Of a stretch of DNA of 11,575 nucleotides, positions 1 through 11,575 are shown one piece after another (positions within the stretch are counted from its first letter, which is position 1; each line of letters begins with the position of its first letter). The stretch is from a virus (Duplodnaviria; Heunggongvirae; Uroviricota; Caudoviricetes), in IMG/VR virus record IMGVR_UViG_2718217885_000003, positions 1 through 11,575 of that record. One strand, written 5' to 3'. The notes under the pieces were generated by a model. It was given only the letters and a program-made list of their open reading frames with translations, was not told the DNA's origin and did no database searches. Position numbers and translations under genes: made by a program.

Positions 1-303
1 TTACTTCCTGCGTTTATCCCGCTTTGTATGTCCGTGCTGAATGCCCCGCAGTGGATCTTCTTTTTTCAGGTCGATCCCCATGTCCGTTAGTGTTTTTGTG
101 GCGGCGGTTCTTATGGCACAAATCAGGTCTCTTTCCGGTTCCCGGGTTATGGTTGCCTTCCGGATACATGCCGTTCGTCGTTCCGTTACATACTGACGCG
201 CTTCATCACTTGCCGCCTGTTTCAGTAACTCACCCCAGCGATTAGCCGCCCGTCGCCATAAACCTTTCGCTTCCAGTTCTTCCGCTTTGTCATCATGCAC
301 CAT
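1..303 (-). CDS. PerC-family-like transcriptional regulator (candidate), 100 aa
   Basis: Complete ORF with TAA at 1-3 on the minus strand. ATG at 303 has GGGA about 8 nt upstream; an alternative in-frame ATG is at 309. The N-terminal segment KAEELEAKGLWRRAANRW resembles the PerC/Pch signature as recalled; not verified by search. Confidence 0.45.
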   Translation of the reverse strand: MVHDDKAEELEAKGLWRRAANRWGELLKQAASDEARQYVTERRTACIRKATITREPERDLICAIRTAATKTLTDMGIDLKKEDPLRGIQHGHTKRDKRRK

Positions 304-417
304 AAGCATAATCCCATTGATACCTGTTAAATCTGAATGGTTGGTTTCTGTTCTTTTGATAATTTTCCGTATAGCTTATTGTATGACAGTACTGTCCCAC
401 AATAAGGAGTTGCACGC

Positions 418-1433: not shown

Positions 1434-1643
1434 CTACTGATTGTTCCATGCTGGCGCGGCGAACGCTTCGGCATGACGCCACCCAGCCAGAAAACCAGCC
1501 ATTTTATTTCGTGCTTTGCTCACATCTTCCGGTGAGTAGCCGTAAATCTGTAAACCTTCATTGAATCGATGTTCTGTTTCTTCACTTGAGTACTCGTCGC
1601 TCTCCGATGAAATCAGCCTGGCAACTTCAGTCTGCGTAGCCAC
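1434..1643 (-). CDS. hypothetical small protein, 69 aa, in the position lambda Nu1 occupies relative to cos copy B; candidate packaging-redirection (Rpp-like) factor
   Basis: GTG start at 1643-1641 with GAGGTGAGGA immediately upstream; stop TAG at 1434-1436 on the complement. It begins about 180 nt after the cosN of copy B. No HTH or other recognisable motif; acidic stretch SSESDEYSSEETEH. Confidence 0.4.
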   Translation of the reverse strand: MATQTEVARLISSESDEYSSEETEHRFNEGLQIYGYSPEDVSKARNKMAGFLAGWRHAEAFAAPAWNNQ

Positions 1644-1881: not shown

Positions 1882-2295
1882 TCAGATGGTTTTCAGTATG
1901 CGATCAATGTCGCCGTCATCGCCCGGGTTTCTGCCATCGTATGCCATGCCAGCTGATACGGCTTGTGGGCTGTGCATGTCCATAAAGTTTTCAAAGGCTG
2001 CGGTAAGCTCTGGTGCAACCTTCTGGCGTTCCTGTTCTATGGTCATGTTCAGGATGTTTTTAGCCGTATCAACATCAATACAAGGCACGTTTGCCATTGC
2101 ACGTAACAGCGGCTGATAGTCGTCAGATTCATAAAGCGACATAATCGCATCAGCGCGCGGCTTGTCCTGTTCTTCCAGTTTGTTAAGTTGATATATAGCT
2201 TCGTAGGTTGATAGACATCTGTCAGCCATTGCCCGCGCTTCAGCTTTAAATTTACTCGCCAGCGGTAGCGCCATGATACTTTCATTCGTTGCCAT
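1882..2295 (-). CDS. hypothetical protein, 137 aa, last gene of the capsid operon (possible scaffold or size-determination factor; unassigned)
   Basis: ATG at 2295 preceded by GGGGGGAACG (strong SD); the longer track ORF to 2406 overlaps the upstream gene and lacks an SD. Acidic, helix-prone composition. No family recognised. Confidence 0.6.
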   Translation of the reverse strand: MATNESIMALPLASKFKAEARAMADRCLSTYEAIYQLNKLEEQDKPRADAIMSLYESDDYQPLLRAMANVPCIDVDTAKNILNMTIEQERQKVAPELTAAFENFMDMHSPQAVSAGMAYDGRNPGDDGDIDRILKTI

Positions 2296-2308
2296 CGTTC
2301 CCCCCTGC

Positions 2309-2644
2309 TTATCGCGCCAGCGGCTGAACAGATACACCAGAACCCGCAAAGGCGGCACATTTTTTCGCGTCGGTGTCGACGCTCTCAGGCCAGTTAACGG
2401 CGGCAATATTGAATATCCCCGTCTTGTAACACTGTGCTGATTTCTGCGTTGACGTGTCCACGGGATACGCCGTCAGATAAACAGCCTTGCCAGATTCCTG
2501 ACCATCCCACGGCTTAAATTCGCCATTGTCCGCCAGCATCAGCGGGGTAAATTCCTGAATAACGCCAGCATCAGCGGCAAAATGTACCAGCGTCGTGGCA
2601 ACCTGCTGACTGCCTGCAAATAACTCAATGTATGGAGTGTCCAT
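2309..2644 (-). CDS. head decoration protein, lambda gpD-like, 111 aa
   Basis: Segment TPLMLADNGEFKPWDG...CYKTGIFNIAAVNWPE...KKCAAFAGSGVSVQ parallels lambda gpD (TPLMLDTSSRKLVAWDG...FYKSGTFRYEDVLWPE...KKRTAFAGTAISIV, from memory). SD GGGGGA 5 nt upstream of ATG 2644. Confidence 0.8.
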   Translation of the reverse strand: MDTPYIELFAGSQQVATTLVHFAADAGVIQEFTPLMLADNGEFKPWDGQESGKAVYLTAYPVDTSTQKSAQCYKTGIFNIAAVNWPESVDTDAKKCAAFAGSGVSVQPLAR

Positions 2645-2655
2645 AGAATCCCCCG

Positions 2656-3711
2656 TTAACCAATTTTGACGGTAACAAATTTGCGAATATCTGCCGGAAC
2701 CGGCTGCGGTGCGCTGTGCGTCTGCACGTACTCAATCGCCGGATCGCCGTCCTCAATCCAGTTTTTCGGGTAAAACATGTTTTGCGTTGCGCCCGTTCTG
2801 ACCGCTTCCTGATCCATAATCGCACCATAGGCCACCAGCCCTTTATTGTTGGTGTTGCCCAGGACCAGCAAATCAGGCTCAAGGAAATATTTTTCGGTGC
2901 CGTCGCTGTCAGTGTATTTGCCGGAATAGACGATAAGGGCAATATCGCCCAGATATCCTTTAAAGCTCACCACTTCGCCCAGGTTTTTACAGGCCAGCTC
3001 TGCGGAGGACTCTGAACCACGGGAAAGATCGTACAGTTCGCGGAATTTTTTAAAGCTGCGTAACGTTCGCCATACCTCAGCGCCCATGATCATGACGTTG
3101 GCGGGGCAACCTGCTTGATCCGCATAAAGCTCGATATCATAGATTGGATCGTGGGTTTCTTTGTCCTGCTCGGACCATTTACGGCCTTTGGCCTGCTCTA
3201 TGATGTTTTTTTCCGGTATCTTCCAGTCGATTTCATAGCGTTCTATGCCTTCGCCCTCAATGATGTTTTTTCCGGTCGTTACCGCATTCACCGCCAGCCA
3301 TTCCACGCGCGCTTTAATCGCGTTTATCTGGCGGCGCATGTTGCCAGTAATCAGGCGCATACGGCGATAGGTTGGGTCATTAAGCTGTGCCGGATCTTCT
3401 CCAGCCATACGCATGATGGTTTTCGTTGGATCGATTTCGTGCTTCGGCTTCATGTATCCAGGTTTAATCGTGCTGGTTTCGTACCCTTTATCGCGCTGGA
3501 CCTGACTACCCACCATAGGCGAACAAAACGCCGACATCGTAACCTCTTCAATGTCCAGGGTGTCCAGCATGATGCTTTGGGTGTTGAATGTCGCCACGTT
3601 CGGGAAAAACAGCGTGGTAAACAGCGGACTGAATTTAAATTCCGCAATATCCCCGCGATTCAGGTACGCGAAAAGCTGGTTAGTGTTAAGTGCCGTTGCT
3701 TTGCCTGCCAT
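2656..3711 (-). CDS. major capsid protein, lambda gpE family, 351 aa
   Basis: Multiple conserved blocks versus lambda gpE (from memory): FKFSPLF..LFF, PGYMKPKHEIDP, EDPAQLNDPTYRRMRLITGNMR, WSEQDKETHDP, LRSFK, SRGSESSAEL..LGEVVSFKGYLGDIALIVYSGKY, LVLGNTNNKGL.AYG, YPKNWIEDGDPA. Start ATG overlaps the upstream stop (TAATG). Confidence 0.9.
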   Translation of the reverse strand: MAGKATALNTNQLFAYLNRGDIAEFKFSPLFTTLFFPNVATFNTQSIMLDTLDIEEVTMSAFCSPMVGSQVQRDKGYETSTIKPGYMKPKHEIDPTKTIMRMAGEDPAQLNDPTYRRMRLITGNMRRQINAIKARVEWLAVNAVTTGKNIIEGEGIERYEIDWKIPEKNIIEQAKGRKWSEQDKETHDPIYDIELYADQAGCPANVMIMGAEVWRTLRSFKKFRELYDLSRGSESSAELACKNLGEVVSFKGYLGDIALIVYSGKYTDSDGTEKYFLEPDLLVLGNTNNKGLVAYGAIMDQEAVRTGATQNMFYPKNWIEDGDPAIEYVQTHSAPQPVPADIRKFVTVKIG

Positions 3712-3917
3712 TATTCACCCCCATAATTTTTATGCATCCCAAGCGCCGCAAGTAAATAAGAGCGTACAAGTGAACCTATCGACGGCTCCGGCGTCATCAG
3801 CGGATCCAGTCCAGCCGCCACGCCAGCCTCATAGTTTTTTTTGTGGCGTTGCTTGAGCACCTCCACGATTTCGGGGCTTATGTACACCGAAACACCGCCT
3901 TTTTTCTCTTCAGCCAT
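3711..3917 (-). CDS. ribbon-helix-helix (CopG/Arc-like) DNA-binding protein, 68 aa, first gene of the capsid operon; putative regulator
   Basis: GVSVYISPEIVEVLKQ (beta strand plus helix A) and SIGSLVRSYLLAAL (helix B) fit the RHH pattern. ATG at 3917 with GAGG upstream; stop coupled to the capsid gene start. Confidence 0.5.
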   Translation of the reverse strand: MAEEKKGGVSVYISPEIVEVLKQRHKKNYEAGVAAGLDPLMTPEPSIGSLVRSYLLAALGMHKNYGGE

Positions 3918-3944
3918 AGTAAGAAATTCCTCTTTGACTTAAAA

Positions 3945-4005
3945 AATCATAACTGGATGTTCATCCAGTTATGATTATAATCATCATTGCATTTTATGCA
4001 ATGAT
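3945..4005. promoter_or_regulatory. operator-like palindromes overlapping a candidate sigma70 promoter for the capsid operon
   Basis: Perfect 32-bp palindrome AATCATAACTGGATG-TT-CATCCAGTTATGATT (3945-3976) and 23-bp palindrome ATCATTGCAT-TTT-ATGCAATGAT (3983-4005). Minus-strand TATAAT (complement of 3974-3979) and TTGCAT (complement of 3996-4001) with a 16-bp spacer overlap the two palindromes. Confidence 0.45.
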
Positions 4006-4080
4006 GTTGAGTTGTGTTGCAAATTATGAAATGATGATCCCGATCATGTGTGTCAGTGCACCAAAAAGCCTCATATGCAA

Positions 4081-4119
4081 AAGCCCGATAAGCCACCTCT
4101 GACCTTATCGGGCTTTTTT
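4081..4119 (+). terminator. rho-independent terminator (strong on plus strand, weaker on minus)
   Basis: AAGCCCGATAAG ... CTTATCGGGCTT, a 12-bp stem with an 11-nt loop, followed by TTTTTT on the plus strand. No annotated plus-strand gene lies upstream, which suggests a short plus-strand transcript from the 3920-4080 region. Confidence 0.6.
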
Positions 4120-4220
4120 ATCTGCCTGCAAAGATGTCGAACAAAAATTAACCGCAACCATCATCTTTTTTGCATCAAAACAATTAAAAACAATAAATTA
4201 CGCTCATGATGATGATGACG

Positions 4221-4292
4221 ATAAAATCACAAAAATGCGCTTTTTTCCGCGCCTCCCGCCCCGTGTTCAGGCCCACCCCGCCAGGAGGACCC
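4221..4292 (-). repeat. diverged third cos-like copy (cosQ-like GGGTCCTCCTGG retained, cosN core altered)
   Basis: Aligns base for base with the cos copy B region (GATAAAATCACAAAAATGCGC vs GGAAAATTTTCATAAATAGCG; CCCGCCCCGTGTTCAGG vs CGCCGCCCCGTAACAGG; GGAGGACCCG vs GAAAGGACCCG), but the cohesive-end segment is changed. It sits next to a homologous terminator. Confidence 0.5.
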
Positions 4293-4294
4293 GT

Positions 4295-4316
4295 AAAAAA
4301 GCCGGATTGCTCCGGC
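4295..4316 (-). terminator. rho-independent terminator after ssb
   Basis: On the minus strand, GCCGGAGCAATCCGGC followed by TTTTTT, 17 nt after the ssb stop. Sequence is homologous to the terminator at 1854-1875. Confidence 0.8.
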
Positions 4317-4332
4317 TTCTGTCACTCGTCGC

Positions 4333-4755
4333 TTAAAACGGTATGTTATCCCCGTACGGATCATCATTCCCCGCCTGTTGTTTTGCCCTGTTCAGCGCGT
4401 CAGTAGCCTGGCCCTGTTGACCTTTTTTGCCGCCCAGTCGCGCCGTTCGCGCACTGATTACACTGTCTGCGATAACCTGCCAGCCCTGCCGCGTTTCTCC
4501 GTTCTGCCCAGTCCACTGGCTGATCTGCATGTTACCCGCCACGCTCAGGAGTTCACCCTTGCGGTGCCTTTCCAGTGCTTCGGCCTGTCTGCCAAATGCC
4601 AGGACGGATAACCACATCGTCGCCGTTCCGTCATCTGCCTGGCTGCACGGAAGGGGGACCGCCATACGCGCCAGCGTCATCGGTGTGCCCTTGCTGGTCT
4701 GTTTTACCTGCGGGTCGTCCACCAGCCGCCCGTAAGCGGCTATCTGTGCTGTCAT
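4333..4755 (-). CDS. ssb: single-stranded DNA-binding protein, 140 aa
   Basis: OB-fold-like N-terminal region (GRLVDDPQV...MWLSVLAFGRQAE...KGELLSVAGNMQISQW...NGETR), Gly/Gln-rich linker, and C-terminal acidic tip DDPYGDNIPF resembling the SSB DDDIPF tail. ATG overlaps the upstream stop (ATGA). Confidence 0.7.
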   Translation of the reverse strand: MTAQIAAYGRLVDDPQVKQTSKGTPMTLARMAVPLPCSQADDGTATMWLSVLAFGRQAEALERHRKGELLSVAGNMQISQWTGQNGETRQGWQVIADSVISARTARLGGKKGQQGQATDALNRAKQQAGNDDPYGDNIPF

Positions 4756-5030: not shown

Positions 5031-5078
5031 ATTTATTTTTACCCCCTCGTTTAAAAAGTTTTGAGTTGTGCCTCCCCT

Positions 5079-5306
5079 TGTCTACCTTATCTACCTTAGT
5101 GGCCCTCATGCCAGTAATGGCGCGGCTTTCAGCGGGGTAGAGTGCTTTTATCCACTATCTACCCCGTGTCTACCTCCCTGTCTGATTCAGGTAAAATCAG
5201 GTAGAGAGGGTAGATAGTGGGTAGACAGTAAAAAAAGGCTATCTACCTAACTTAATGCACTGAATTAAATTTATTTTTCTTTACTCAGGTAGACAGGGTA
5301 GACAGC
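5079..5306. repeat. iteron array, candidate replication origin, immediately 3' of the primase gene
   Basis: At least 11 copies of GGTAGA(C/T)AG and its complement in both orientations (for example 5081-5089, 5090-5098, 5134-5142, 5156-5163, 5168-5175, 5200-5205, 5209-5216, 5219-5228, 5241-5248, 5288-5296, 5297-5305), with AT-rich blocks at 5250-5285 and 5306-5330. Confidence 0.7.
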
Positions 5307-5318
5307 AATTACAAAAAA

Positions 5319-7073
5319 TTATAAAAACGCGTCGCACTCGTCTGTTGTTATTGCGTTAGTCTGCGTTACTCCCTTAACTTTCCGCGTAATATATTCATGT
5401 CCGTAAACTTTCGCGGCTGGCTTCATAGCCTTGCCAAAGTCATTTACGTTTAGCGGTTTGCTCCTGCCTGCGTACGCCATAAACGCCAGATAGACGCGGT
5501 AAAGGCTGTTTCTGGTCGTGTACTTCACTGAATCGCCACCGCCGCCCATCATCAGGCCGCGTGCTTCCTCCAGAAAATTCAGGAACTGGCAAAACTCAAT
5601 AACCGGATCCGTCTGTTGCTTTATTGCCAGAGCTTCATCACCGTCACGCTGTTCCAGTAGTAAAGCCCGTGCCTTCTCAGGGTCGGTAAAGTTCGCCAGC
5701 AATCGGCGGATAATGACAGGGATTTCAGCCGCGATCTTTTCCGGTAGCTCCCTGTCTTTTTCGGCCTCACTGACGATATTGTCGAAACGGAAAATCACGC
5801 GACGACGTGCCACACCTCCGGCCCGTTCGGTGAATATCATCGGGTTATTGTTGGTCGCCAGCACCACCGCCCTGATTACAGCCGTGAAACGCTTTTCGTA
5901 TTTCGGGTTAATTTCCACGGGGTCACCGCCCGTGATTTTCTTGATGCCCGTTCCTTCGCCTGTATATTTCGGCTGGTCAGCCAGGACGATAAGACGACTC
6001 CCGACAACCTGCGCACGTCCACCAGCATCATCAAGCGACGTCATTTCAGCGCTTACCGTGTTCTGTTTCCCTGCCAGAAGGCTGGCTATGTGCGTGAATG
6101 TACTTTTACCGCTCCCGCCATCTCCGGTGGCCTCAATAAACATCTGCCAGTCGTACCGGTTCGCCATAATCATGTACAGCGCGGCACATATACGCATCAT
6201 CTTGCGCGGGTCTTTTCCGGCTGCGTGCTCAAGCCATTTATGAAAGTTTGGCGCGTTATCGCGGATGTTCTCCCCTGGTGCTGGTGGCGTGTACTCAATG
6301 CCGTTGTGCGTGGTGATCCAGTTCTCCGGCGTGTGCGGGGAAAATTCCCCCGTTTTCAGGTCAAGCGCACCATTGGCGAACGGCAGCAAATCGCCGGACG
6401 GCTCGCCCATTGGTTCGGCAATAACTTTTAACGCTTCCACGGCGTTATTGATTACGCGCTTGCTGAAAGTGGCCCTGTGCTCTGAATAGATCGCCACCAT
6501 TTCGCGGCTAAGTTCCATTGTGCTGACCGGACACCATACCCCGCCGCGCCATACGTGAACGATTTCACTTTCAGGATGTACGCAAACGCCATCAAAGCGA
6601 TCGGCAAGCAGCTGCGCGCGTTCACTGTCCGCCATCTGCGAAAGTTGCGCCTTTTGCTTTACCGGAAGCTCAATGACCAGACCATCAGAAAGATTCTGGC
6701 GCTCACGGGCCAGATATTCGCGCCAGTTCTCCACCTTCTGACCGTGCATACCATCAGGGTAAAAATTTGCATCCTGTACGCCTGCCGCCGCCAGCTTCTG
6801 GCCAATCGCCTTTATCATTACTGGCGCAAGATATCCGGCCCTGTATATGCGTGCTGATTTTCGGCCTTCCGGCACAATTTGCAGATTATCCAGTTCGGAT
6901 AGCTGCTGCTCCCCAAGCCACACAGGAGGCTCATTATCTCCGGCCATACGCGCATCATGTTCCTGCCATTGTTTCGCGTGTGACCAGGCATCACTACCCG
7001 CAAAAATAATGACTTCTGTTTCTTTGTGTTTTATGCCGCGTGACTGCTGTTTTACGTTCGGTGCCAGTTTCAT
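5319..7073 (-). CDS. primase/helicase-type replication initiator (P4 alpha / PICI Pri-Rep-like), 584 aa
   Basis: Walker A GDGGSGKST and Walker B-like LIVLAD in the C-terminal half; N-terminal primase-like region. Followed by the iteron array. ATG overlaps the upstream stop (ATGA). Confidence 0.85.
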   Translation of the reverse strand: MKLAPNVKQQSRGIKHKETEVIIFAGSDAWSHAKQWQEHDARMAGDNEPPVWLGEQQLSELDNLQIVPEGRKSARIYRAGYLAPVMIKAIGQKLAAAGVQDANFYPDGMHGQKVENWREYLARERQNLSDGLVIELPVKQKAQLSQMADSERAQLLADRFDGVCVHPESEIVHVWRGGVWCPVSTMELSREMVAIYSEHRATFSKRVINNAVEALKVIAEPMGEPSGDLLPFANGALDLKTGEFSPHTPENWITTHNGIEYTPPAPGENIRDNAPNFHKWLEHAAGKDPRKMMRICAALYMIMANRYDWQMFIEATGDGGSGKSTFTHIASLLAGKQNTVSAEMTSLDDAGGRAQVVGSRLIVLADQPKYTGEGTGIKKITGGDPVEINPKYEKRFTAVIRAVVLATNNNPMIFTERAGGVARRRVIFRFDNIVSEAEKDRELPEKIAAEIPVIIRRLLANFTDPEKARALLLEQRDGDEALAIKQQTDPVIEFCQFLNFLEEARGLMMGGGGDSVKYTTRNSLYRVYLAFMAYAGRSKPLNVNDFGKAMKPAAKVYGHEYITRKVKGVTQTNAITTDECDAFL

Positions 7074-9601: not shown

Positions 9602-9808
9602 TTACGCAGCCGTTCCGCGCGCTTCTTCCTCGCGTTCTTTCAACCAGGCCCGCACCTCATCTTCATACCAGCCAACACGGCGCAGACCGATTTTGAAGCC
9701 TTTCGGGAATTTTCCGGCGTTGATCATGTCCTGTAGCGAACTGTCTGCCTTGATGCGCAGAATATTTTTTACTTCCTGACGGGTAAGAATTTTTCTGATT
9801 ACTTCCAT
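9602..9808 (-). CDS. alpA: AlpA-family (Phage_AlpA, MerR-like HTH) transcriptional regulator/excisionase-like protein, 68 aa
   Basis: LTRQEVKNILRIKADSSLQDMINAGKFPKGFKIGLRRVGWYEDEVRAWL matches the AlpA pattern (HTH, then K/R-rich wing ending in W-x-x-E-V-x-x-W). Sits between int and the replication operon. Confidence 0.85.
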   Translation of the reverse strand: MEVIRKILTRQEVKNILRIKADSSLQDMINAGKFPKGFKIGLRRVGWYEDEVRAWLKEREEEARGTAA

Positions 9809-10220: not shown

Positions 10221-10333
10221 TTCAATAAATCTCGATTTCTCATGAGTCGGGTTTTTCCTTGTCTGTTGAGGAGATCGGCGATTATACGATGGTTTAGCAT
10301 GGTTTGCACTGGTTGTACTGGTTTTTTGTACAG

Positions 10334-11575
10334 TTACACCGCACGGATACCCCTTTTACCACTGGCTATGGTCACTCCGGTTGCTGCGGCTTCCACAAAT
10401 TCACCCCACCAGCGCATAAGTACTACACGTTTTTCCAGGTAGTTACTTCGGTTATATGCCCGCCTTACCTCGTTCGTGTCCACGTGTGCGAGCGCGGCCT
10501 CGATTACGTCCGGCTCGAATCCTTCCTCGTTCGCTGCTGTGCTGAATATGGCGCGTAATCCGTGAGACACCAGCACACCAGCGTAACCCATCCGGCGCAA
10601 TGCGGCGTTAGCGGTCTGGCTGCTCATTGGCAGCATCGGGTTTTTAAGGCTGGGAAAAACGTGTTCTCTGTGTGCGCTGATTGGCTTCATGGTTTCCAGT
10701 ACAGCCATAGCCTGACCACAAAGGGGGATCACATGGTCACGGCGCATCTTCATGCGTCCGGCTGGAATCGTCCAGGTTTCGGCATCGAGATCTATTTCTT
10801 CCCAGCGTGCGGCGGCTGCTTCGGCTGGGCGTGCTACGGTCAGCAGTTGCCACTCAATCAGCAATCTGGTTTGCCGTTCTATGCTGGCGACCGATAAATC
10901 GTGCATTAGCTGCGGTAGCTGTTCCGGTCGGATGGTTGGCATGTGCTTTTTGGTGGGTGAGGGGAATGCCTTGCGGACGTTCGCGGCGGTGTTGATGTCA
11001 ATCAGCCCACTGTTGGCAGCAAAATCCATCACTTCATTGATGCGTTGTAAAACGCGTTTCAGGGTTTCCAGGTTGCCGCGTACTTTAATGGGTGTGAGTA
11101 TCTCAACAAAGCGGCGAGCGGTGAGGGTATCTATTGGCGTGTTTCCGATGTACGGGAATACGTATTTTTCCAGGGAACGCCAGATATCCTTAATCGTGTT
11201 GTAAGCCAGATTCTGGCCTTTTTTCATCTCGTACCAGTCCGAGGCAACTTTCTCGAACGTGTTGCCCTTTTTTCGGCTCTCTGCTTCACGTTTCCGGCGT
11301 TCGTGGTCCTGTGGGTCAGTTCCCTTTGCTATGAGTGACCTGTATTCATTCCGTCGCTCTCTGGCATCAGACAGGGAAACATCATTCAGCGATCCAAGGC
11401 TGATAATAGTCCGTTTTTTATCTGCCGGACGGTAGTACGTAAAACGCCAGATTTTTGATCCGGAGGGCTTCACCAGAAGAAATAATCCTCCGCCATCCTG
11501 CAGGGTGTATTCCTTTTCCCCTGGTCGTGCGTTTTTGATCTCCGTAATAGTTAGTGGGGTGGTTTTTCGTGCCAT
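10334..11575 (-). CDS. int: tyrosine site-specific integrase, P4/CP4-57 type, 413 aa
   Basis: N-terminal arm-binding region (GEKEYTLQDGGGLFLLVKPSGSKIWRFTYY) and C-terminal catalytic residues (ARPAE Arg, HGLRAIFST His-x-x-Arg, LAHV His, RRAYNRSNY Tyr). The start codon is the last triplet of the window, so the true start could lie further upstream outside it. Confidence 0.95.
   Translation of the reverse strand: MARKTTPLTITEIKNARPGEKEYTLQDGGGLFLLVKPSGSKIWRFTYYRPADKKRTIISLGSLNDVSLSDARERRNEYRSLIAKGTDPQDHERRKREAESRKKGNTFEKVASDWYEMKKGQNLAYNTIKDIWRSLEKYVFPYIGNTPIDTLTARRFVEILTPIKVRGNLETLKRVLQRINEVMDFAANSGLIDINTAANVRKAFPSPTKKHMPTIRPEQLPQLMHDLSVASIERQTRLLIEWQLLTVARPAEAAAARWEEIDLDAETWTIPAGRMKMRRDHVIPLCGQAMAVLETMKPISAHREHVFPSLKNPMLPMSSQTANAALRRMGYAGVLVSHGLRAIFSTAANEEGFEPDVIEAALAHVDTNEVRRAYNRSNYLEKRVVLMRWWGEFVEAAATGVTIASGKRGIRAV

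Follow-up and report, generated by a model that had tools for sequence, protein, structure and literature searches.

What controls the capsid operon of a phage satellite, and what part do the long inverted repeats over its promoter play in that control? The window, that is, the whole 11,575-nt stretch analysed, is a phage-inducible chromosomal island (PICI) of the EcCICFT073 type, an E. coli phage satellite, and an earlier note on its sequence had described palindromes, a promoter, recurring motifs and a hairpin upstream of the capsid genes, all of which proved to be real. Of the interpretation attached to them, the control region, the choice of promoter and the operator-like positions of the palindromes stood, but an RHH (ribbon-helix-helix) binding site, tight repression and a plus-strand RNA found less support.

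The island and its capsid operon

All genes of the window lie on the minus strand, and Pfam searches identified int, AlpA, a D5-type primase, SSB, capsid E and decoration D among them. The type of the island is given by int, alpA, pri-rep with an adjacent ori, a lambda-type cos, the capsid and decoration genes, and a size of ~11–12 kb. Its insertion site is rclA, and its rpp is a remnant comprising the C-terminal half only, whereas rppA of CFT073 is intact. The operon encodes, in order, a 68-residue protein, the capsid protein, the decoration protein and a 137-residue protein, corresponding to c1498–c1501 of CFT073, of which c1499 and c1500 have been assigned to EcCICFT073 in the literature. 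The stop codon of the first gene overlaps the start of the second. The operon and promoter features are as follows:

2656..3711, minus strand: major capsid protein of the lambda E family, second gene of the operon (Pfam Phage_cap_E, E = 3e-52)
3711..3917, minus strand: gene of the 68-residue protein, first of the operon (c1498 homologue, phrog_3255; ORF list)
3927..3934, minus strand: ribosome-binding site AAGAGGAA, 9 nt 5' of the ATG, read from the sequence and kept in the E. coli and Salmonella copies
3974..3979, minus strand: -10 hexamer TATAAT, within the invariant 12-bp TGATTATAATCA, read from the sequence with the copies compared
3996..4001, minus strand: -35 hexamer TTGCAT, spacer 16 bp, with TTGC invariant and positions 5–6 variable

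The reading of this stretch as the control region of the capsid operon was supported: positions 3918–4125 constitute the promoter module of the c1498–c1501-type operon. This module is PICI-specific, with ~80 other copies, including those of EcCICFT073 and of Salmonella islands; phage records contained no homologue of it, and only two plasmid records carried it. A scan of public genome contigs with the 68-residue and capsid proteins as queries gave no matches. The copies compared are mostly close relatives, so that conservation counts do not equal independent events. The segment upstream of c1498–c1499 in EcCICFT073 is near-identical, with a perfect 15-2-15 palindrome, the motifs U1 and U2, the hairpin H2 and the terminator T1 (all described below) and the same gene order, but CFT073 differs in having a PerC-family gene directly upstream and no cos site between T1 and H2. 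No published description of the promoter upstream of c1498–c1499 was found in the literature.

Published RNA-seq data from CFT073 support c1498–c1501 being one transcription unit, with log2 changes of +2.24 (c1498), +2.05 (c1499), +1.45 (c1500) and +1.17 (c1501), compared with a non-significant +0.33 for rppA (c1503). The same data make a tightly repressed late promoter, as proposed earlier, doubtful: the operon is measurably transcribed in CFT073 and rises ~4-fold at 37 °C without helper or SOS induction. During this rise sulA, dinI and umuD were unchanged, and therefore at least one other input exists, and the promoter is not silent.

Promoter and paired upstream motifs

The -35 and -10 elements picked in the earlier note coincide with the conserved sigma-70 pair (TTGCAT, 16 bp, TATAAT), from which transcription of the minus strand is predicted to start at ~3967. 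TGATTATAATCA and TTGC-N5-TGCAA showed little or no variation among 46 distinct variants and in Salmonella. A consensus scan reported no promoter because the -35 hexamer matches at only 3/6 positions and the scan threshold was 4/6; this low match and the 16-bp spacer count against the promoter. A second promoter starting from the TTGCAA of U1 was rejected, as no conserved -10 follows downstream. A candidate Fur box over the -10 (GATGATTATAATCATAACT) matched 14/19 positions of the consensus, and only ~10/19 in the commonest variant, and was set aside as not conserved.

The smaller palindrome, previously placed at 3983–4005 as a 23-bp element, was recovered to within 1 nt, with computed 11-nt arms at 3982–3992 and 3996–4006 that are 100% complementary around a 3-nt centre. 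A 15-bp motif (TTKCRNAAWWTGCAA) occurs twice here, exactly 30 bp apart, and this palindrome is one of the two occurrences:

3987..4001, minus strand: motif U2 TTGCATAAAATGCAA, core of the 11-3-11 palindrome, centred at ~-27.5 (repeat and motif search)
4017..4031, minus strand: motif U1 TTTCATAATTTGCAA, direct repeat of U2 30 bp upstream, centred at ~-57.5 (direct repeat D2)

Each island carries two U motifs at a constant distance of 30 bp, and none outside this pair. The locus set retrieved by the U1 pattern is unusable for judging the conservation of U1 itself, which was however also conserved in loci retrieved independently of it. The flanks of the 11-nt arms around U2 are not conserved, and one symmetric change from A:T to G:C was found in Salmonella. 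U2 overlaps both the -35 and the spacer. AlpA is an unlikely binder: it activates its own promoter, yet no U motif is found elsewhere in the island. Comparisons were made with CytR half-sites (GTTGCATT), which showed a partial resemblance with no flanking CRP sites, and with the lambda CII repeats (TTGC-N6-TTGC), the spacing of which does not fit.

A predicted LexA box across the start site

The larger palindrome had been described as a perfect 32-mer at 3945–3976. The inverted repeat is real, but it consists of 15-nt arms (3945–3959 and 3962–3976) that are 100% complementary around a 2-nt centre, TT, and like the smaller one it is located where operators sit.

3945..3976, unstranded: 15-2-15 inverted repeat with variable outer 8-bp arm segments (repeat search)
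3951..3970, unstranded: predicted LexA (SOS) box AACTGGATGAACATCCAGTT (sense strand), best match in the window (PWM)

Conservation is concentrated in the core, CTGGAT-N4-ATCCAG, which is kept in 79 other island copies, and only about one-third of 80 copies have outer arms that pair throughout. The predicted box, a 20-bp CTG-N10-CAG dyad with an AT-rich centre, overlaps the promoter and predicted start, spanning ~-3 to +17 and beginning 4 bp past the -10 TATAAT. Scored with a PWM derived from 18 E. coli boxes of the literature (PMC3009722 Table 4), it reached 20.2 bits, in the range of recA and sulA and within that of the known boxes (6.6–27.6, leave-one-out), a value attained by one of 200 window shuffles and one of 2000 intergenic shuffles. 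The heterology-type index was 7.3, compared with 7.1 for recA, 7.3 for sulA, 8.6 for ruvA and 17.0 for polB. Across 845 kb of related loci, matches of ≥14 bits fell into only two families, of which the predicted box is one. The box is of the CTGG-N8-CCAG variant, as are those of ruvAB and cho among the E. coli SOS boxes (CGCTGGATATCTATCCAGCA and CACTGGATAGATAACCAGCA; PMC3009722 Table 4), the ruvA box being identical to CTGGAT...ATCCAG at 12/16 core positions and the island box scoring similarly or better; unlike these, it is a predicted target on a mobile element and forms the middle of a larger inverted repeat, whose arms measure 15 nt in this haplotype. A host LexA box therefore fits the conserved core, with its mostly mismatched outer arms, better than the previously suggested site for the 68-residue (RHH) protein.

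The palindrome might instead act mainly as RNA, either as a terminator or attenuator with a U6 tail or as an mRNA-stabilizing 5' stem-loop. The 42-nt segment folds at -17.7 kcal/mol (z = -6.5, equalled by 0/200 shuffles), and the minus strand scored as terminator-like, with 14 pairs preceding a run of T that is kept in all variants, including those devoid of the palindrome:

3941..3946, minus strand: T6 run, directly 3' of the palindrome on the sense strand

Three outer-arm pairs are changed on both sides, with G–U intermediates that pair in the sense RNA only, and the covariation is modest (0.107 vs 0.080 in shuffles, reached by 3/500). Against this stands the position of the -10, which on the sense strand overlaps the 5' (upstream) arm: transcripts from the operon's own promoter would hold only the inner 6-bp stem, and the full stem would arise in read-through RNA only. 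In addition, the stem has only four G–C pairs, an unpaired G–A occurs in the outer arm of half of the variant types, and the hairpin is absent altogether from L004-type islands. The 12 core positions of the box have never changed in a compensatory manner, with the variability residing in the loop and flanks, and an inner stem of this kind points to base-specific recognition. The single core change observed, ATCCAG to ATACAG in locus L024, brings the sequence nearer to the LexA consensus while breaking the hairpin. A main role as RNA is thus considered unlikely.

Binding by LexA and SOS inducibility of the capsid operon are what we infer from the sequence of the box. In one island subtype (L004/L017) the promoter is retained but the SOS box is missing, and the box is therefore dispensable for the operon. 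The accessible PICI literature makes no mention of LexA binding to, or SOS induction of, the capsid operon, and alpA of EcCICFT073 is reported as SOS-independent. A literature search retrieved no ChIP, EMSA or SOS transcriptome covering c1498, and the curated SOS gene lists include no island genes.

The 68-residue protein as a candidate repressor

The earlier note had assigned the first protein of the operon to the RHH class and taken the promoter as possibly autoregulated; on such a model the protein would bind the palindromes and shut its own promoter until relieved. Consistent with this, its N-terminal GGV(S/T)VYISP followed by a helix resembles, in our own reading, RHH strand–helix signatures, and this segment is among the invariant or near-invariant columns of the family. 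RHH-class families were also the only weak Pfam matches of the homologues besides one chance match, namely BrnA_antitoxin (best E = 0.017) and RHH_1 (best E = 0.15), each in 3/12. U1 and U2 occur at this promoter only, as expected for an autoregulator, and are conserved in islands whose 68-residue protein is just 54–68% identical; moreover, such a repressor would be compatible with LexA at the other operator.

Nonetheless, these Pfam matches are sub-threshold, no family was matched at threshold in Pfam or NCBIfam, and the AlphaFold2 monomer (pLDDT 73.7, moderate confidence) shows two helices, at residues 15–34 and 47–58, and no strand, with no PDB match in Foldseek at E ≤ 0.001. The large palindrome, furthermore, does not track the protein, since the Salmonella and L004-type proteins share the N-terminal strand and only Salmonella keeps the palindrome, and translational coupling to the capsid gene would suit an assembly factor equally well. 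No co-variation between U1/U2 and the protein is visible because both the motifs and the N-terminus are conserved. The protein belongs to a PHROG of unknown function (phrog_3255), with homologues confined to E. coli and Salmonella islands; a tblastn search with it against phage records gave no match. Overall, autorepression by this protein is a tentative reading that we regard as rather doubtful.

Upstream hairpin and the question of a plus-strand RNA

The promoter module is bounded upstream by a hairpin, and a terminator lies beyond it:

4078..4119, unstranded: hairpin H2, bidirectional intrinsic terminator/insulator with stem GCCCGATAAG/CTTATCGGGC (repeat search, fold statistics)
4295..4319, minus strand: terminator T1, 3' of the SSB gene, GCCGGAGCAATCCGGC followed by T6 (sequence, islands compared)

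H2 folds at -19.5 kcal/mol (z = -4.8) on the plus strand and at -23.8 kcal/mol (z = -5.7) on the minus strand, and reads as a terminator on both because it is preceded by an A-run and followed by a T-run (T6 on plus, T4 on minus). Its loop of 10 nt falls outside the 3–8 nt allowed by the terminator scan, which is why the scan did not report it. The hairpin had been noted at 4081–4119 as a plus-strand terminator with no gene upstream; it is real, but it is bidirectional and does have genes upstream, on the minus strand. All copies have a hairpin at this place, immediately preceding the promoter module and following SSB, PerC or another gene, yet with three unrelated stem sequences, H2 being replaced by hairpins of other sequence in L004-type and Salmonella islands. 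A G+C-rich stem with a U-run after a transcription unit, with structure kept despite sequence change, is what is expected of an intrinsic terminator.

A short divergent RNA had been considered in the same note; on the plus strand it would run from the promoter core to 4081–4119 and either regulate the capsid operon or encode a small peptide. The T-run of H2 is longer on the plus strand (T6; T8 in L004), the Salmonella hairpin is terminator-like on that strand only, and ATTATAAT yields TATAAT there too. This TATAAT has, however, no acceptable -35 upstream and is lost on the plus strand in L004, where TAAAAT serves the sense strand only. The 45 bp between U1 and H2 are unrelated alleles, and H2 is a terminator for the sense strand too, where in most islands it simply comes next after T1. 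The hydrophobic 43-residue ORF on the plus strand (3971–4102) was rejected as a toxin-like gene, since its length varies between 8 and 68 residues and its start codon is lost in some relatives. Rfam covariance models gave no match at E ≤ 1 over 3900–4330. With terminator orientation as the sole support and neither a promoter nor an ORF conserved, a divergent RNA is very unlikely.

A phage-derived cos site next to the module

The ATGATG-type repeats at the far end of the region have a separate origin. The earlier claim of recurrent ATGATGAT-like motifs holds as to number, with 10 matches at ≤1 mismatch within 3920–4220 against 1.35 expected (dinucleotide shuffles; 0/1000 reach 10), of which 3–4 come from a single (ATG)4 run at 4206–4219 read in overlapping registers. 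The right-hand ATGATG repeats, at 4157–4219, are however part of a phage-derived cos site and not of the promoter:

4130..4296, minus strand: complete cos site of the VT1-Sakai/Stx2 phage type (homology to the lambda-type cos sites of the window and to Stx phages)
4286–4294, minus strand: cosQ CGGGTCCT (cos homology)
4247–4264, minus strand: cosN-like ACGGGGCGG (cos homology)
4206–4219 and 4157–4166, minus strand: cosB, CATCATCATCATG and GATGATG, respectively (cos homology)

The segment has cosQ, cosN and cosB in order, as in a lambdoid cos, and is homologous to that upstream of terS, with 87–90% identity to VT1-Sakai/Stx2 phages over 150 nt. In Stx phages its counterpart is flanked by the Rz endopeptidase gene and terS, with identity running to just before terS, whereas that of the satellite lies between the SSB gene and the promoter. 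The spacing from cosQ to cosN-like equals that of lambda (for 4130–4296 only), and the right half of cosN is GGGCGGGAGGCG compared with GGGCGGCGACCT in lambda. A cos site was present at this place in 16/88 loci.

Accordingly, a packaging role is correct for 4130–4296. That the whole stretch might be a packaging or replication site, i.e. cosB-like for terminase or Rpp, or the island origin, rather than a transcriptional control region, could be read from its location downstream of cos-like cosQ/cosN and from the ATGAT repeats in both orientations within AT-rich DNA. Phage cos homology ends, however, at ~4132, and most islands, EcCICFT073 among them, carry the module 3900–4119 with no cos upstream of it. 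The R3 element proposed for PICIs spans bp 48–65 from cosN (PMC9026076); that of the lambda-type cos of the window is, in our own reading, TCCATGTCCGGTTTCTCT, which is unrelated to the motifs found here. As for replication, at least 10 TRTCTACC iterons at 5074–5308, right after the primase gene, account for the origin, and the module was accordingly rejected as one; its position ahead of the capsid operon is constant among islands with three different replication genes, namely D5-type primase, DUF927 and RepA helicase. Extending the packaging or replication role to the whole stretch is hence most improbable.

Proposed model and relation to known systems

We favour, as the probable reading, a satellite capsid operon that is derepressed by SOS under host LexA, with 3918–4125 as its predicted promoter/operator module. 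The sigma-70 promoter (TTGCAT, 16 bp, TATAAT) would start minus-strand transcription at ~3967, and host LexA on the predicted box at 3951–3970, across the start site, would hold the operon down. Upon SOS, RecA-stimulated cleavage of LexA would derepress the capsid operon, the signal being the one that induces lambdoid helper prophages. A second sequence-specific protein is predicted to bind the paired U1 and U2 at ~-57.5 and ~-27.5, and T1 together with the bidirectional H2 would insulate the promoter from the upstream replication operon. Between T1 and H2 the island has in addition gained the cos of the Stx-phage type, a packaging element outside promoter control.

Doubly repressed phage promoters exist, such as PrstA of CTXphi, which is controlled by LexA plus RstR. 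The promoter described here would be similar in combining a LexA site, in this case predicted, with a second set of operators for an element-encoded regulator on one promoter, but differs in that these are U2 on the -35 and spacer and U1 30 bp upstream. A switch of this kind, with LexA on the start site, an RHH-like 68-residue repressor on U1/U2 and the palindrome also terminating read-through RNA, though not RNA from its own promoter, is conceivable but improbable. If true, no repressor would have been identified in a Gram-negative PICI before the 68-residue protein; at present these islands are regarded as governed by one activator, AlpA, and are described as induced through it by a helper signal, independently of SOS.

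The favoured LexA reading has a functional counterpart in operon I of SaPIs, which is controlled by LexA (Ubeda et al. 2007, Mol Microbiol 65:41, as cited in PMC6092414). Both would be satellite morphogenesis or packaging operons with their own promoter and a host LexA site, here predicted; such a site implies derepression by the SOS signal that induces the helper prophage, independently of the main induction switch. The resemblance is functional rather than homologous, with binding and induction here predicted only: the host is Gram-negative, the box is of the E. coli type (CTG-N10-CAG) as opposed to the Firmicutes LexA motif, and the genes are capsid and decoration genes of the lambda E/D type as opposed to terS/cpm.

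Neither function nor regulation has been reported for the capsid and decoration genes of Gram-negative PICIs, and the predicted LexA box lies on the operon start both in EcCICFT073, the prototype, and in dozens of islands from E. coli and Salmonella. The complete cos of the Stx-phage type next to the module suggests that the island may be packaged by Shiga-toxin phages via their own terminase specificity, which bears on satellite spread in STEC. If the predicted control by LexA is true, these satellites would follow a SaPI-like logic, in which DNA damage directly arms the morphogenesis genes before or alongside helper-dependent induction.

Island identity and layout

[quoted passage not shown] The flagged stretch is therefore the intergenic region before a c1498-c1501-type operon of a PICI, with c1499 and c1500 of EcCICFT073 described in the literature as capsid and decoration homologues, and this control region is real and belongs to an already known family of satellites.

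Genes of the window
10334-11575, minus: integrase
9602-9808, minus: AlpA-family regulator
5319-7073, minus: D5-type primase
4333-4755, minus: SSB
3711-3917, minus: 68-aa ORF
2656-3711, minus: major capsid protein, lambda-E-type
2309-2644, minus: decoration protein, lambda-D-type
after the decoration gene, minus: 137-aa protein
minus: DUF4222 protein

A copy 100% identical to the 701-nt query (window 3700-4400) was found in E. coli MFDS1022581, whose island is inserted in rclA. The SSB gene and the 68-aa ORF are separated by a 415-bp gap composed of two unrelated modules, 3900-4119 and 4130-4318, which occur independently in blastn matches across 5,426 E. coli genomes: several islands, among them those of CFT073, CEA601S and an O157-lineage strain, lack the right module, and in them a gene and its terminator come right before the left one. 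A PerC-family (ANR-like) regulator gene occupies 1-309 (minus), at the far end of the island; in many related islands (L002, L003 and L088, the last being CFT073) such a gene lies directly upstream of the capsid promoter, and the database protein P0023 fuses a PerC N-terminus to the C-terminus of the 68-aa protein. The likely PICI replication origin, at 5074-5308, directly follows the primase gene and holds at least 10 TRTCTACC(T/C) iterons pointing both ways; an Rfam mir-135 hit there was weak and dismissed as a chance match to a long imperfect palindrome.

Promoter architecture and conservation

The minus-strand promoter was read as TTGCAT (4001-3996), a 16-bp spacer and TATAAT (3979-3974), which bears out the -35 and -10 chosen in the earlier note; a consensus promoter scan missed it solely because of its -35 threshold of 4/6. 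The two palindromes described in that note are real, with small corrections: the large inverted repeat has perfect 15-nt arms (3945-3959 and 3962-3976) around a 2-nt centre, and the second has perfect 11-nt arms (3982-3992 and 3996-4006). A 20-nt direct repeat (3987-4006 and 4017-4036, 85% identical) had gone unmentioned.

Conservation was assessed in four E. coli genomes, two Salmonella islands located via homologues of the 68-aa protein, CFT073, and 79 IMG/VR contigs located via a pattern inside U1, the upstream of two 15-bp motif copies, giving 46 distinct variants of the left module. Invariant or nearly so were the -10 TGATTATAATCA, TTGC-N5-TGCAA covering the -35 and the downstream copy U2, U1 itself (ATTTCATAATTTGCAAC), CTGGAT-N4-ATCCAG, and the T-run with the ribosome-binding site; U1 conservation is biased by the search pattern in the IMG/VR subset, and independently fetched loci also conserve it. 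The outer 8 bp of either arm of the large palindrome were variable, with full complementarity in about one-third of 80 copies and 6 of 8 pairs in most, and the outer parts of the 11-nt arms were not conserved. Across these copies, the perfect long palindromes read as haplotype features over shorter conserved cores. Just upstream of U1 lie two GATC (Dam) sites 6 bp apart (GATCGGGATC, 4039-4048), the second of which is lost (GATAA) in many relatives.

Predicted LexA operator in the large palindrome

CTGGAT-N4-ATCCAG is built like the LexA boxes of ruvA and cho. With a symmetrised weight matrix from 18 E. coli LexA boxes (PMC3009722 Table 4), the 20-mer at 3951-3970 scored 20.2 bits, the best site in the window, compared with leave-one-out values of 6.6-27.6 bits (median ~20) for known boxes; shuffling the whole window gave a score this high in 1 of 200 cases, and shuffling the intergenic region in 1 of 2000. 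By a Berg-von Hippel-type heterology index computed from the same counts, on which lower values are better, the box (7.3) stands between recA (7.1) and sulA (7.3) and outranks ruvA (8.6). The Salmonella box (GACTGGATGAAAATCCAGTA) retains 20.1 bits despite its diverged surrounding leader, and within 845 kb of related loci, matches of at least 14 bits fall into two families only, namely the promoter box (79 copies) and a box at the 3' end of int genes. Beginning 4 bp past the -10 and spanning about -3 to +17 of the predicted start, the promoter box occupies a classic repressing position.

The large palindrome and its U6 tail could also serve as a terminator on read-through RNA, as they scored terminator-like, the outer arms covary to some extent (three pairs changed on both sides, with a score reached by 3 of 500 shuffles), and G-U pairs occur in the sense RNA only. 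However, the -10 lies inside the 5' (upstream) arm of the sense strand, so that RNA from the operon's own promoter holds only the inner 6-bp stem and this role is possible for read-through RNA alone; we consider it a minor, compatible function. At the 12 core positions, compensatory substitutions were never seen, loop and flanks change freely, and the single core change in locus L024 (ATCCAG to ATACAG) moves nearer the LexA consensus and breaks the stem. This favours protein recognition over a mere hairpin, and a LexA operator is the most likely identity of the main palindrome, as predicted from sequence. A precedent cited in PMC6092414 is SaPI operon I under LexA control (Ubeda et al. 2007); our literature search found no paper describing such control in Gram-negative PICIs. 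Caution is warranted, since alpA of EcCICFT073 is reported to be SOS-independent and the L004/L017 subtype has the same promoter and U motifs without the box (index 33).

A second strong SOS-box-like 20-mer, TACTGGTTTTTTGTACAGTT (10316-10335), scores 19.4 bits; it begins at the stop codon of the integrase gene and lies ~40-60 bp upstream of a TATAAT. Boxes of this kind, often with GTG for CTG, are found at int 3' ends in three unrelated flank contexts.

Paired motifs at the promoter

Each island carries the motif TTKCRNAAWWTGCAA exactly twice, the two copies at a constant distance of 30 bp, and it is otherwise absent from the islands. U1 is centred near -57.5 and U2 near -27.5, the latter overlapping the -35 and spacer, as would fit a repressor or a cooperative pair. 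Salmonella shows one symmetric change, in which the base preceding TTGC and the one following GCAA were replaced jointly (A..T to G..C). The second palindrome is predicted to form one half of a phased pair of operators.

The 68-aa protein remains a candidate binder of U1 and U2. Its N-terminal GGV(S/T)VYISP is invariant or nearly so across the family, and its weak Pfam matches, one chance match aside, are of the ribbon-helix-helix class only; no Pfam or NCBIfam family matched at threshold, a Foldseek search of the PDB found nothing at E of 0.001 or better, and the AF2 monomer has two helices but lacks a strand. AlpA itself is unlikely to bind them, as it is an autoregulator according to the literature, yet no U motif lies near alpA.

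Upstream hairpin

The hairpin at 4081-4119 folds strongly on both strands. This element, H2, preceded by A6-8 and followed by T4, adjoins the upstream side of the promoter module in all copies. In most islands it stands 6-9 nt after T1, the terminator of the preceding gene, and in L004-type and Salmonella islands its place is taken by hairpins unrelated in sequence. What had been described as a plus-strand terminator with no gene upstream is a real, conserved, bidirectional terminator, which we read as an insulator between replication-operon and capsid-operon transcription in both directions. The short divergent RNA proposed to end there has one point in its favour, the longer T-run of H2 on the plus strand, and was not upheld: a usable plus-strand -35 is absent, L004 no longer has the plus-strand TATAAT, the stretch from U1 to H2 consists of unrelated alleles among islands, a 43-aa plus-strand ORF is not conserved, and an Rfam match is absent.

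Operon expression in CFT073

In published CFT073 RNA-seq comparing 37 C with 23 C, c1498, c1499, c1500 and c1501 (operon at L088 463-2497, homologous to window 1882-3917) rose by 2.24, 2.05, 1.45 and 1.17 log2, respectively, with the SOS genes sulA, dinI and umuD unmoved. Changes in rppA (c1503, +0.33 log2) and the upstream PerC-family gene (+1.9 log2) were not significant. Thus, c1498-c1501 behave as one unit, whose end is the terminator that precedes cos1 and rppA, and the satellite capsid operon is thermoregulated. The promoter, previously portrayed as tightly repressed, is not silent and has an SOS-independent input, a further reason for caution over the LexA reading.

A captured packaging site in the right module

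The right module begins with cosQ CGGGTCCT and the cosN left half ACGGGGCGG at lambda-like spacing, and aligns with the two exact lambda-type cos sites of the window.

Cos sites of the window
4130-4296, minus: third cos site, complete cosQ-cosN-cosB of VT1-Sakai/Stx2-type lambdoid phages (87-90% identity)
1182-1201, plus, and 1805-1824, minus: two exact lambda-type cosN ACGGGGCGGCGACCTCGCGG, facing, ~600 bp apart

The identity to VT1-Sakai and Stx2 phages extends over 150 nt, and the phages have the homologous segment at their cos position, with the Rz endopeptidase gene on one side and terS on the other. The homology starts at cosQ and stops ~25 bp short of the ribosome-binding site of the phage terS, at window ~4132. 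The recurrent ATGATGAT-like words are indeed enriched (10 versus 1.35 expected), and the (ATG)4 run (4206-4219) and ATCATC (4157-4166) are conserved between phage and island, probably sitting roughly at the places of lambda R3 and R2 (positions from PMC9026076). Judged by this homology, the right third of the flagged stretch is a captured Stx-phage packaging (cos) site, to which the right-hand repeats formerly assigned to promoter control belong. Its cosN differs from that of lambda in the right half (GGGCGGGAGGCG).

The left and right flanks of the lambda-type cosN sites are recombinant between those of CFT073 cos1 and cos2, pointing to inversion or rearrangement between the inverted cos sites. 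The same Stx-type cos module was also seen in another island type, L005 of E. coli OkiPb01714 (3985-4200), where it follows a ClpP-protease/capsid fusion gene; this island apparently sits within a prophage terminase gpA gene, a helper-embedded configuration.

A 69-aa ORF at 1434-1643 (minus) corresponds to the C-terminal half of RppA only, matching residues 78-128 of CFT073 c1503 with 94% identity. As it has no N-terminal winged-helix DNA-binding domain, the island is probably without a functional Rpp. The third cos site, found in 16 of the 88 related loci, suggests that such islands may be packaged directly by Stx phages without Rpp.
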